A stretch of 52,142 nt of DNA, counting the filler, from Dirinaria sp. TL-2023a (lineage: Eukaryota), in the NCBI GenBank assembly GCA_051941275.1. It is 2 parts of 2 records of this genome, joined end to end, with 100 filler letters (N's around TTAATTAATTAA, not from the genome) between each part and the next. Parts side by side here need not be neighbours in the genome. Positions count along the whole stretch, not along the records: positions 26,170 to 52,142 come from JAVEBF010000166.1; 1 more part is not named here. One strand, 5' to 3'. The position numbers were made by a program, and so were the translations under genes. This document shows, piece by piece, positions 26,070 through 50,109 of the stretch (within the stretch, counting starts at the first letter, position 1; each line of letters starts with the position of its first letter). Under the pieces are notes generated by a model that worked only from the letters and a program-made list of their open reading frames with translations, did not search any database and was not told the origin of the DNA.

Positions 26070-26169
26070 NNNNNNNNNNNNNNNNNNNNNNNNNNNNNNN
26101 NNNNNNNNNNNNNTTAATTAATTAANNNNNNNNNNNNNNNNNNNNNNNNNNNNNNNNNNNNNNNNNNNN
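26070..26169. other. Artificial contig spacer: 44 N + TTAATTAATTAA + 44 N
   Basis: The 12-mer at 26114-26125 has stop codons in all six frames and is centred in exactly 100 nt. Confidence 0.97.
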
Positions 26170-45927: not shown

Positions 45928-47475
45928 ATGAGCGAGCTGCAGCGCTCATTTGCCAAAGCCAAGCTTGCTGGACTTCCCTTCCAACCTCCCCTACCCCAGA
46001 CCACCGCTCACGGCTTCGACGGGGAGGAGGGAGAGGAAGATGTCGACGAGGACCCCAGAGATGATCTGAAACCCTTGCCCGATCGGAGATCTACCGACGA
46101 CGATTCTTCATCCTCCGCCTCCTCGGCTTCATCCGCCTCTTCCACTGGCACCATCAAGCCATCGCCCAGTAAGCATCTCTTTGCTAGGCCCAAGGGGTTG
46201 GTGATTCCTTCTTACCAGTGTTTGTTCCTGGGTTGACTGTTGGGTGTTGTTGAATGCTGCCTCTCGTTGCATGCTGTGCCGATATCTGTTTCTATATACG
46301 TTGCCACTAGAGGTCAGGAAGTGTTTGTGTCTGATCATAGTTCTTCACCGTCTAGCGCTGCCAATGGGAAGAGACCCTTGGATCCACTACCCTGGAACGA
46401 TTTCTTCGCTCAAGAACTCTATCTGGACAGCCAGCGAGTCGACCATGACATCACGCATCATGTCTACTTCACCCCACCACAGGCGAAAGGGCCACTGTTC
46501 GTGACGCACCATGGAGCTGGTTCGTCCGGATTATCGTTCGCATTGTTTGCTTCTGCAATTCGCAAAGCTTTACCAGATGCTGGTGTACTTTCCGTCGACG
46601 CTCGAGGTCATGGGGAGACCGTAGTCAGGAAAGAAGGTGAACCAGCTGCGAATGATCTCCTGGATCTACGCCTCGAGAGCTTGAGCCAGGACCTCCTAGA
46701 CGTCCTTGCGCTGATCCAGAAAAAATTGGAGTGGCCGGAACTCCCAGGACTAGTGCTCATTGGCCACAGTCTTGGGGGTGCCGTCGTGACCGACGTAGCG
46801 GCAAGTGGACAACTGGGCACTGCAGTGCTGGGTTATGGTGTCCTTGACGTAGTTGAAGGCTCTGCAATCGACGCACTCCAAAGCATGCAGTCATATCTCT
46901 CTGGAAGGCCGAAGGCTTTCCCATCGCTCGCTTCAGGGATCGAGTGGCAGTAAGTCAATTTCAAAGAGCTAAGTTTACCTCCTTACACTTTCTAGCATCC
47001 GTTCGCGGACGATCCGGAATCCCACATCCGCTCGAATTTCCGTTCCCTCACTTCTGCGCGAAGTGCACTTTTCACAATCCTCTGCCACGGAGGATCCGTT
47101 CTGGACGTGGAGGACTGATCTTGCGGCAACTGAACCATTCTGGGAGCACTGGTTTGTCGGACTAAGCAAGAAGTTCCTAGGAGCGAAAGGAGGGAAGCTA
47201 CTGTTGCTCGCTGGGACTGACAGATTAGACAAGGAACTGATGATCGGGCAGATGCAAGGTATTAACACCTCTCGTCGAACCGTCCTCTACGAGCGCAGTA
47301 CTAACAGTGAACAGGCAAATATCAACTTCAAGTTTTCCCGGAAGCTGGCCATTTCATTCACGAGGACCAAGCAGAGAAGACTGCTATGGTTGTAGCGGAC
47401 TTTTACAGGAGGAATGATCGAAGTGCATTAGTCTTGCCACCTAAGGTAGGAGACATGCTTCAGAATCATAAATGA
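45928..47475 (+). CDS. PPE1: Protein phosphatase methylesterase 1 (PME-1); 4 exons
   Basis: HHGAGSSGLSFA, DARGHGET, GHSLGG nucleophile elbow, VLDVVEGSA, LLLAGTDRLDKELMIGQMQG|KYQLQVFPEAGHFIHED. Confidence 0.93.
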
Positions 47476-48317
47476 AATACCTTTCTCGCTTTGCAGATTG
47501 GGAACGACAGGCCAGTGCCAGGTATCGCAGATGATGTAAAGATGAAAGCTTTTCTATCCAGTTTTACATTACCAGCAGCCCTGCCTCGGAATATTCCTAC
47601 GGTGCCATGCCCGAAAAGATGTAGAGCGGACACAAGCCCTATACTAGCGTCGCTTGTACTCACGCTGATTGTACAACAAGACTATCAATAGATGAACCGA
47701 TACTGCAAATGTGAGGCTATCAGGGCTGAGCGTTCTGTTCCCAAGCACACTGAGCTCCCAAAGGTACCAATGAGCTAATAAAGTTTATTGTAATTGGACC
47801 GAAGATCCGGGCGACGATCACGTTGGGCTCTGGTGGTCAAATGATGCCAGTAATGTTCTTGAAACTCTGGTTGGGTGCAAATTGATCTCCATGAGCTATT
47901 TTGTATGCAAGCACCACGATTCTCCTTTTCCTACAAAGCCTTCAAGATTGAGTGTAGCCTGTCCTTGCCCTCTTGCTGCGACTTCTCCTCACACAAGGTT
48001 GCGTCGCTGAGGCCAGACATCACTGGCATGTCGCCGCTGACTGGGTCTCCGCCTTCTCTTTACTTTAAGTTGCTTGCTTAAAAAGGATAGTCTTGTCCAA
48101 GGGTTGTTTGGTAGTCACATGTACATAGAAGGCTTGCAACCCACCCATTATCATGATACGATGTCATAACAATGACCCTCTATCTCCTTCCAAGCCCTGA
48201 TTTAATGATCCTAGTCCTGAGTGTTGTGCAGGTTCTCCAAGACGGTAAAGGGGTTTGAATAAAAACCCTAGAAACAATAACATATGACGGAGAAAAAGAC
48301 CCGATTTCCCAACCAAG

Positions 48318-48658
48318 GCCGTTACGGTCGAGCGGATAAATTCGAGTGCACAACTCCCTAAACCCCCCAGGGCTCAGTGTTCGAATCCCGCCCGACTGCT
48401 AACATTGTGGCCACCTAGCGGTTGCATTCTTCTGCCCCAAAGTCCCCTGGCCAGCCCCAGCCAGAACGCGGACACAGAAGAAGCGTGGGTCCGTTTCCTA
48501 ACGAGGAAAACCTGCAAATACCGCTAGCTTCGGACCGTGCAAACCAGGTGGTGCTGGTTTCATTACCCTCAACGCCCTCCAAAGGACACCGCCAGCTGGC
48601 CTTGGAGCGCAGAGGGGAACTTTTGCACTTTTGGGGTAAGGAATTTTTTTTTTTTTTT
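48318..48658 (+). ncRNA. Candidate Pol III transcription unit: tRNA-like A/B-box leader, structured ~230-nt RNA and T15 terminator; identity unknown
   Basis: A-box-like CGGTCGAGCGG at 48325-48335, perfect B box GTTCGAATCC at 48379-48388, at least eight complementary segment pairs between 48415 and 48638, and a T run at 48644-48658. Confidence 0.55.
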
Positions 48659-48855
48659 ATATGGGAATGATTTTTCTTTGATTGATATAGCTCTACAATT
48701 AATTGTGTCTGCTTTGGAAGATGGATGATGGGGTGCTGTGGTGGTTCCTTCAAGTGATCGCAAAAAGGGGCTTCTTGCACGTGACTTTGTCTTTTTGCAA
48801 GTCGCGGATATCATGAGGACTGATATCATAAGGATATCATGAGGCTACTAAGTAC

Positions 48856-49240
48856 ATGTATCTTGACAAACCCTTTAACTTTGTTTTGCTTTTACTGCTT
48901 CACGCCGCTATCATTGCTTCCTCGCGGCTTTCTCTAATCGAGAAGAACATCGTTAATGCTGTACGTGCCCTTGACCCAGTGAAGTCGATCACTGTAGTGG
49001 AACATACCTGTAGTAGCTTGCTACTCTTTCAATCATTGTTTCATTCTCTACTAAAATCTACAGCTTTCGCAAACCTTCGCGCTGACGAGATTGATGATCT
49101 CCAAAATCGACGAGTTCAAATTGACTGATTTAATTAAAGGCTTCTCATCATTATGTTTTCCTGACATGCATTGCTCTCAGGTATCAGGATCGAAATCTGA
49201 GTGTCTATTGCTACTTATGTTCACGCGTACCAGTATCTCC
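48856..49240 (+). CDS. Possible orphan small secreted protein; 3' end uncertain
   Basis: Signal-peptide-like MYLDKPFNFVLLLLLHAAIIASS. A GTACGT donor at 48961 and TACTAAAATCTACAG acceptor splice in frame to LSQTFALTRLMISKIDEFKLTDLIKGFSSLCFPDMHCSQ. No recognised family. Confidence 0.3.
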
Positions 49241-50109
49241 CATTATGGCACGTAAGATACTTTCTCATCAACGTTCAAGCCGGCAACCAGACATCTTTTT
49301 TGCCCAAATTGGTGGCTCGCGACAATGACTATAACCTTGCACATCGACCGCATTCAGTCGTAAGAAGCTGTGCTATATACTCAGCACGAACGCCCTCGCT
49401 TGACTATTACTTTTGAACGGGCCACAATTCAAAGTATTTGCACTCGTCCTTGACTCTCATTGCAACCTTGAGAAAGCCATTGACAGAAGCTGTCAAATTG
49501 CAGTCTCAAAGTGGTGCCTTAAAGCGAAGTCACATGGACACCTGACCAGTCATCGCTTCTTCTTTGATCACGTTGCTAGTTGTATGCGCGAGGCAAGAAG
49601 GACAGTGGAAGCCCCAGCTAAATGCCCAGCTATCTGATATACTCCATGAGTTTTCGGTGTAGGGAGTACTCATCCTTAATGAACCTATGGGCAAACCTCA
49701 AAGGCTACGCTCGAGCATTAATCACCAAGTGATAGTGAATCTGCTAGAATAGTGAGCAAGTGAAATGACTGATTTTGACCGGTTATCCAACAGATCTGAA
49801 GGAAACGAGGGTGCATTGTTAGTGTGCAGTTCCCTTTTGCCCTCTTAAGACCTTGATAGGTGACCATGGACGATCGTCCGTAACACTAGCCTCGTCGGAC
49901 TCAAATATTCCCATCTTCTTCTCTTGCTTGGAAGCGTATCAGACGTTATCCTACTACGCTAGCCCCTTTTCCTTGGCGCGATTCCGCGCTTCGCGTTAGC
50001 TTCATGACGCGACGTCGACCTATCGCCATATACGAGCTTGGAGGAAGCTTTTATTTCTGAATTGCGATGTGAATACATTTTGTATTCTGCAAACTAAGGC
50101 AGTCGGTCT

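Follow-up and report, generated by a model that had tools for sequence, protein, structure and literature searches.

In budding yeast, RPR1 and SNR52 are leader-driven Pol III genes, with the A and B boxes placed in a 5' segment. The candidate unit described here lies at 48318..48658 on the plus strand of a 52,142-nt stretch of DNA from Dirinaria sp. TL-2023a, the whole of which we call the window. It resembles the two yeast genes in having A and B boxes in a non-tRNA 5' segment, followed by a predicted structured RNA of unrelated sequence and a putative oligo(T) terminator. It differs from them in its body, which is no RNase P RNA (no Rfam match) and no C/D snoRNA (no RUGAUGA or CUGA). Rodent BC1, a neuronal Pol III noncoding RNA of 152 nt from a single locus, has an A-rich center and a tRNA-derived 5' part with A and B boxes. 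The candidate, known from its sequence alone, shares with BC1 a 5' part with internal A and B boxes that is predicted to fold as a hairpin rather than a cloverleaf, but the two have no sequence relation. The fungal tRNA-5S rRNA arrangement is comparable in that a tRNA-type internal promoter drives an unrelated downstream RNA, as it would here; that arrangement, however, consists of a functional tRNA gene and a 5S rRNA, whereas the candidate matches neither.

Two mobile elements are also built on tRNA-like promoters. AfuSINE2 of Aspergillus fumigatus is a low-copy, tRNA-related, SINE-like element of 140-493 bp with degenerate A and B boxes and an extended 3' part unrelated to tRNA, which is followed by an oligothymidine tract; it was identified starting from predicted tRNA-related structures and has target-site duplications of 4-14 bp (PMC5063351). 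The candidate fits this operational definition through its A and B boxes, its tRNA-unrelated 3' part, its oligo(T) and its size, but it has neither a tRNA-model match nor a duplication (PMC5063351). In Helenus/TRIMp3, the tRNA-like promoter lies in the LTRs, is conserved around boxes A and B only and cannot be folded as a tRNA (PMC10886601). The candidate likewise has tRNA-like boxes embedded in a longer noncoding element, but it shows no TG...CA termini, 5-bp duplication or nearby second LTR, and the reported fungal hosts of Helenus are Basidiomycota (PMC10886601).

Set against these systems, the locus is an unproven candidate for a Pol III-type RNA gene, one that is probably lineage-specific. 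The reading that we tentatively prefer is a lineage-restricted, tRNA-gene-derived Pol III unit consisting of a head, an unrelated body and an oligo(T) end.

The locus and its promoter signals

The unit sits inside a 2.6-kb interval flanked by two plus-strand genes, the 5' one encoding an alpha/beta-hydrolase (Pfam Abhydrolase_6, E 7.8e-12; called PPE1 in the first-pass annotation) and the 3' one an RFC small subunit with AAA plus RFC lid domains. The window looks fungal, with short introns in its genes. Its 88 N form two equal runs of 44, at positions 26070-26113 and 26126-26169. The features of the unit and its immediate surroundings are as follows.

48258..48317, plus strand: upstream AT-rich region with CAAC/CAAG words 2-10 nt 5' of the head, by sequence inspection
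48318..48400, plus strand: tRNA-length head, or leader, with an A-box-like word and a B box, folding as a hairpin
48325-48335, plus strand: A-box-like CGGTCGAGCGG, 2 mismatches to TRGCNNAGYGG
48328-48331 / 48342-48345, plus strand: D-arm-like stem TCGA/TCGA with a GG-containing loop, inside the head
48378-48388, plus strand: B box TGTTCGAATCC, 1 mismatch to GGTTCGANNCC
48415..48527, plus strand: domain 1, Y-shaped three-way junction
48425..48642, plus strand: alternative closing rod, in which 5' ATTCTTCTGCCCCAAAG pairs with 3' CTTTTGGGGTAAGGAAT
48537..48628, plus strand: domain 2
48621-48624 and 48629-48632, plus strand: two T4 runs in the 3' end of the unit
48644..48658, plus strand: T15 run, putative Pol III terminator
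48671-48675, plus strand: T5 run beyond T15

A coordinate check located all 20 motif strings quoted in the first-pass annotation where it had placed them. Its GC-rich body corresponds to a GC island (0.575-0.59 over 48300-48599) with flanks at 0.40-0.48 (0.415 across 48100-48299) and sharp edges, the head on one side and the T run on the other, and the 15 Ts that it described after the body are present. Its B box is there as well, with one mismatch to the consensus rather than perfect as claimed. No T run of at least 5 nt interrupts the unit before T15. On its plus strand, the window holds four T runs of at least 10 nt, T15 included, plus one A10 run.

The consensus strings used for the promoter were TRGCNNAGYGG for the A box and GGTTCGANNCC for the B box. 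The A-box-like word and the start of the B box are 53 nt apart, and T15 lies 256 nt past the B box. On sequence criteria, the locus has the elements of a putative type 2 Pol III promoter, namely, A and B boxes spaced as in tRNA genes and an oligo(T) tract 3' of them. The AT-rich region upstream of the head would, by analogy with the upstream motifs of yeast tRNA genes, be where TFIIIB lands and transcription starts.

How often such signals arise by chance was estimated with a scan allowing 2 mismatches in the A box and 1 in the B box, the latter starting 35-65 nt 3' of the former, with a T run within 400 nt. The window holds one A+B pair versus a mean of 1.17 per dinucleotide shuffle (n = 60), which is chance level. 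Pairs followed by a run of at least 6 Ts occurred at 0.15 per shuffled window (one or more in 9 of the 60 shuffles) and pairs followed by at least 10 Ts in none of the 60, figures that run low for the T runs since dinucleotide shuffles under-represent homopolymers. By our own estimate from the five real runs of at least 10 nt in the window, the expectation for A+B with such a run is ~0.02 per window. In related fungal DNA (42 loci and 698,360 strand-bases, with many near-duplicates among them), five A+B pairs were found, none of them accompanied by a run of at least 5 Ts. Overall, the signal statistics are only moderate, and the full signature of promoter, GC island and T15 is rarer than chance.

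Downstream of the unit, GGATATCATGAGG is directly repeated three times at window 48806-48844, twice exactly and once at 85%, with spacings of 15 and 11 nt, and a CACGTG word stands just 5' of it at window 48779-48784. Located 120-190 nt 3' of T15, these repeats and CACGTG have the look of a Pol II promoter with its transcription-factor sites.

Folding of the head and the body

The predicted fold of the head is a single long hairpin (-28.4 kcal/mol, z -3.42, equaled by none of 200 shuffles) that joins the A-box segment to the stretch immediately 3' of the B box, and no cloverleaf forms; a longer segment, 48305-48410, gives a z of -3.27. ARAGORN found no tRNA gene in the window, none either at thresholds lowered to 80%, and only nonsensical folds at 70%. 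A cmscan of 126 nt at E<=10 gave no match to the Rfam tRNA model (RF00005). Since no tRNA model detects the head, the case for the proposed decayed tRNA leader is carried only by the box motifs and the D-arm-like stem.

The apical part of the head hairpin contains CCCTAAACCC (window 48356-48365), which matches the complement of a TTTAGGG-type telomere repeat over 1.4 units. A reading of this word as a telomerase template was rejected: it occurs once in the window, and a related locus (L035, ~9719) has TTAGGG twice instead. In addition, the telomerase RNAs of fungi are long and made by Pol II. The resemblance is probably due to chance.

For statistics, the body was taken as 48405-48643 (239 nt), and its complementary words were counted against 1,000 shuffles. 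Perfect complementary words of at least 6 nt numbered 22 versus 10.9+-4.2 expected (p 0.011), those of at least 7 nt 8 versus 2.8 (p 0.038), and those of at least 8 nt 2 versus 0.8 (p 0.20). The minimum free energy (MFE) of the body is ordinary (-84.9 kcal/mol, z -0.84), as 39 of 200 shuffles did equally well. Six of the eight stems listed in the first-pass annotation, with CCCTC..TCCAA/TTGGA..GAGGG counted as one stem, have an ensemble probability of at least 0.47, and the two crossing ones have 0.03.

Domain 1 has a closing stem CTAGCGGT/ACCGCTAG, an arm TTCTTCTG/CAGAAGAA, a hairpin TTTCCT-AACG-AGGAAA and an unpaired internal loop, CCCCAAA (48435-48441). Its predicted stability is -43.2 kcal/mol, with no shuffle of 200 as stable and a z of -4.67 that is inflated because the ends of the domain were selected on an 8-bp complement. 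In the nested ensemble, competition with the terminal stem lowers the probability of its closing stems to 0.03. In domain 2 (-34.1 kcal/mol, z -1.42, 19 of 200 shuffles; stem probabilities 0.47-0.96), GTGCAAA/TTTGCAC encloses a hairpin, AAACCAG-GTGGTG-CTGGTTT, and a two-tier stem, CCCTC..TCCAA/TTGGA..GAGGG. The stem of this domain is capped by a 10-nt perfect palindrome, GCCAGCTGGC (48591-48600). Many alternative pairings result from the CCAG/CTGG words that recur across the body.

Two of these arrangements are nearly isoenergetic: the global MFE fold, which uses the terminal rod (-84.9 kcal/mol), and the two-domain fold (-82.7 kcal/mol without a pseudoknot). In the latter, TGCCCCAAA (48433-48441) would instead pair with TTTGGGGTA (48630-48638) as a loop-tail pseudoknot, the duplex alone contributing -14.0 kcal/mol. 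This pairing of the free CCCCAAA loop with the TTTGGGG tail would be the pseudoknot suspected from the first reading.

The leading alternative to a Pol III unit is that no stable RNA is made and that four elements have come together by chance in Pol II promoter or intergenic DNA: a 10-mer resembling a B box, a weak A-box-like word, a spacer rich in GC and a poly(dT) tract that excludes nucleosomes. A+B pairs are as frequent in shuffles, the body MFE is unremarkable, the head matches no tRNA model and 65 related loci hold no homolog, all of which speaks for this alternative. Also in its favor are the promoter-like GGATATCATGAGG repeats and CACGTG directly 3' and the eight homopolymer A or T runs of at least 9 nt in the window. 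However, a window should hold the combined signature only ~0.02-0.15 times, the 698,360 strand-bases of related DNA do not show it, the limits of the GC island coincide with the head and the T run, the head hairpin reaches z -3.4 and complementary words are in excess (p 0.01-0.04). We consider chance juxtaposition somewhat unlikely.

Homologs, copy number and known families

Relatives of the locus were collected in one metagenome scan with the hydrolase exon as the query, which returned 65 loci (469,699 nt). The RFC gene is also found on nine of them, downstream and in the order of the window in five (L002, L003, L004, L007 and L008); in another four (L015, L016, L017 and L026) it lies upstream of the hydrolase gene, i.e., in a rearranged order. 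Across the five syntenic loci, the coding flanks are 69-72% identical at the nucleotide level, the stretch from window position 47457 to 50105 is without any alignment, and the intervals contain no plus-strand T run of at least 6 nt. The closest relative, L038, is 75% identical in the last exon, and its 1.4 kb of downstream DNA shows neither an alignment nor a T run. An additional minus-strand gene, with ORFs of 276 and 137 aa, is present at 7323-8361 of L002 and in the same place in L003, L004, L007 and L008; tblastx found no counterpart of it in the 52-kb window.

The element itself was found in none of the 65 loci by blastn (word 7, E<=0.01) or nhmmer (E<=10). A covariance model of domain 1 matched only itself in 401,322 nt, and with filters off on the six syntenic or closest loci its best score was 12.3 bits (E 0.41, at ~10205-10290 of L002/L008), where inspection revealed nothing similar. 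A B-box word 5' of the hydrolase gene in L014-type loci was discarded as part of a coding exon. Furthermore, an exact 19-mer of the body had three matches in a genome contig collection, all in bacterial MAGs and against ~4 expected by chance by our arithmetic, and none in a viral contig collection. The first-pass annotation had counted a lack of conserved or covarying homologs against its own reading, and within these 65 loci, which include the five syntenic ones and the closest relative, none was found. Since the relatives are distant, with coding flanks only ~70% identical in nucleotides, the negative result counts only weakly against function.

The same comparisons bear on whether the unit is a dispersed copy of a tRNA-derived retroposon, either a SINE or a solo LTR left by a TRIM with a tRNA promoter (Helenus, for example), which would have many genomic copies and no cellular function. 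A head joined to an unrelated body is compatible with this origin, an insertion would be missing in syntenic relatives as observed here, and both fungal SINE-like elements so built (PMC5063351) and fungal TRIM LTRs with tRNA-like promoters (PMC10886601) are described. Against the tRNA-derived SINE proposed as an option at first reading stand the single copy in the 52,142-nt window, the lack of a match in the 65 fungal loci (469,699 nt of related fungal DNA) and the lack of a flanking duplication. No direct repeat of at least 6 nt, as a target-site duplication would leave, surrounds the unit, and none of the 11 x 17 TG/CA combinations has a matching 5- or 6-bp flank as a sign of a solo LTR, so that TG...CA ends bordered by a duplication of 4-6 bp are lacking. 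On the sense strand the unit ends in T15 rather than in an A-rich, simple-repeat or LINE-derived tail. Additionally, the reported hosts of Helenus are Basidiomycota, animals and one plant, not fungi of this kind (PMC10886601). Retroposon origin is unlikely in our assessment.

As judged against Rfam models, the locus belongs to no described RNA family. Rfam 15 gave no match at the gathering score in the whole window and none at E<=1 across 3 kb. Relaxing the threshold to E<=10 for stretches of 371 and 126 nt revealed no tRNA, RNase P, RNase MRP, SRP, 5S, U6, snoRNA or Afu family, and the matches returned (HOXB13-AS1, CRISPR-DR30, RUF6-5, CC3664, NEAT1 and NPPA-AS1) are noise. By reading the sequence, both the C box RUGAUGA and the D box CUGA, as defined in PMC5640933, are absent from 48401-48643 on the plus strand.

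If the unit were a very divergent or reduced RNase P or MRP RNA, AAAGTCCCC (48439-48447) would serve as the CR-I strand of P4 and GGGGAACTTT (48614-48623) as its CR-V partner, with the 5'/3' rod in the place of P1. The two words form a duplex of -12.9 kcal/mol with one bulged A, GGCCAGC at 48449 and GCTGGCC at 48595 could close an inner domain directly after the P4-like helix, and yeast RPR1 is itself a leader-driven Pol III gene. Against this, the 371 nt had no match at E<=10 to RNaseP_nuc, RNase_MRP or bacterial or archaeal RNase P, including the nuclear RNase P (RF00009) and RNase MRP (RF00030) models. Moreover, the ensemble probabilities are 0.015 for the P4-like pair and 0.005 for GGCCAGC/GCTGGCC. 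The defining features given in PMC13184271 are the P3 helix-loop-helix and, for MRP, a GARAR pentaloop in P8, together with a CR-IV of 8 nt in RNase P and 6 nt in MRP, CR-II/III in RNase P and a 3-bp P5 beside CR-I in MRP. The P1-like rod leaves no space for a P3 ahead of the CR-I-like word, and by eye the body shows no P3, no AGNNNNAN CR-IV, no AGNNAN before the 3' strand and no GARAR pentaloop hairpin (features from PMC13184271), the sole GARAR word being GAAAA at ~48506-48510, which is not a stem-borne pentaloop. Membership of AAAGTCCCC in an RNase P or MRP RNA was consequently rejected for want of a model match, P3, GARAR pentaloop or CR-IV, and we regard this reading as very improbable. 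That the unit belongs to a fast-evolving protein-coding gene, as an exon or as a remnant, is scarcely credible: stop-free frames of 83 aa (plus) and 131 aa (minus) do traverse the body and the relatives have a minus-strand gene within the same flanks, but there is no Pfam match at E<=1, a phmmer search of the plus frame against 1.84 billion representatives gave a single, spurious match (a tandem-repeat protein over 23 residues), a word-indexed search of the minus frame limited to lengths of 66-212 aa gave none, and tblastx of the interval against that of the relatives is empty over the element, so that coding readings were rejected on both strands with no Pfam domain and no genuine protein homolog.

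A candidate leader-driven unit and its meaning

In the preferred reading of a lineage-restricted Pol III unit, the head would have lost the cloverleaf and retained the A-box-like and B-box motifs, through which TFIIIC and then TFIIIB would be recruited. Pol III would start near 48305-48315, a position that we infer from the upstream region, proceed through the GC-rich body of ~240 nt, which has no relation to tRNA, and terminate in T15. The resulting primary transcript would be ~330-350 nt long and carry oligo(U) at its 3' end. Its body may form either a rod closed by its own 5' and 3' ends or two domains joined by the loop-tail pseudoknot.

Several observations favor such a unit: the motifs and their spacing, the rare A+B+T signature, the bounded GC island, the head hairpin, the excess of complementary words, the lack of an interruption by at least 5 Ts, the lack of a protein homolog or Pfam domain on either strand and the AfuSINE2-like build. 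The opposing ones are A+B pairs at chance level, a head without a tRNA-model match, an ordinary body MFE and no counterpart in relatives. Opposing it too, promoters commonly contain long T runs, and promoter-like repeats lie just downstream. The first-pass proposal of a structured Pol III RNA of unknown function is partly supported: it keeps its rare full signature, its separation from Rfam families and its lack of a coding explanation, and loses ground on the fold energy of the body, on homologs and on the tRNA origin of the head, which no tRNA model detects.

A more specific version of the proposal is a functional, undescribed Pol III RNA of filamentous fungi, confined to one fungal lineage. 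It would have a cleavable A/B-box leader of the RPR1 or SNR52 kind and a mature RNA of ~225 nt, in which the Y-shaped domain and the second stem domain are locked by the pseudoknot CCCCAAA/UUUGGGG, and would serve as an RNP scaffold or guide. We think this version decidedly unlikely.

The locus is an unverified candidate. It carries the lesson that A/B-box words and a T run are insufficient by themselves for a gene call, and that expression or conservation is needed alongside them. To our knowledge, the fungal Pol III transcriptome is poorly charted beyond budding yeast, where the leader-driven genes RPR1 and SNR52 are exceptions. If verified, the candidate would be a new structured RNA of a filamentous fungus, transcribed from a leader, and it would provide a natural leader promoter useful in guide-RNA expression.
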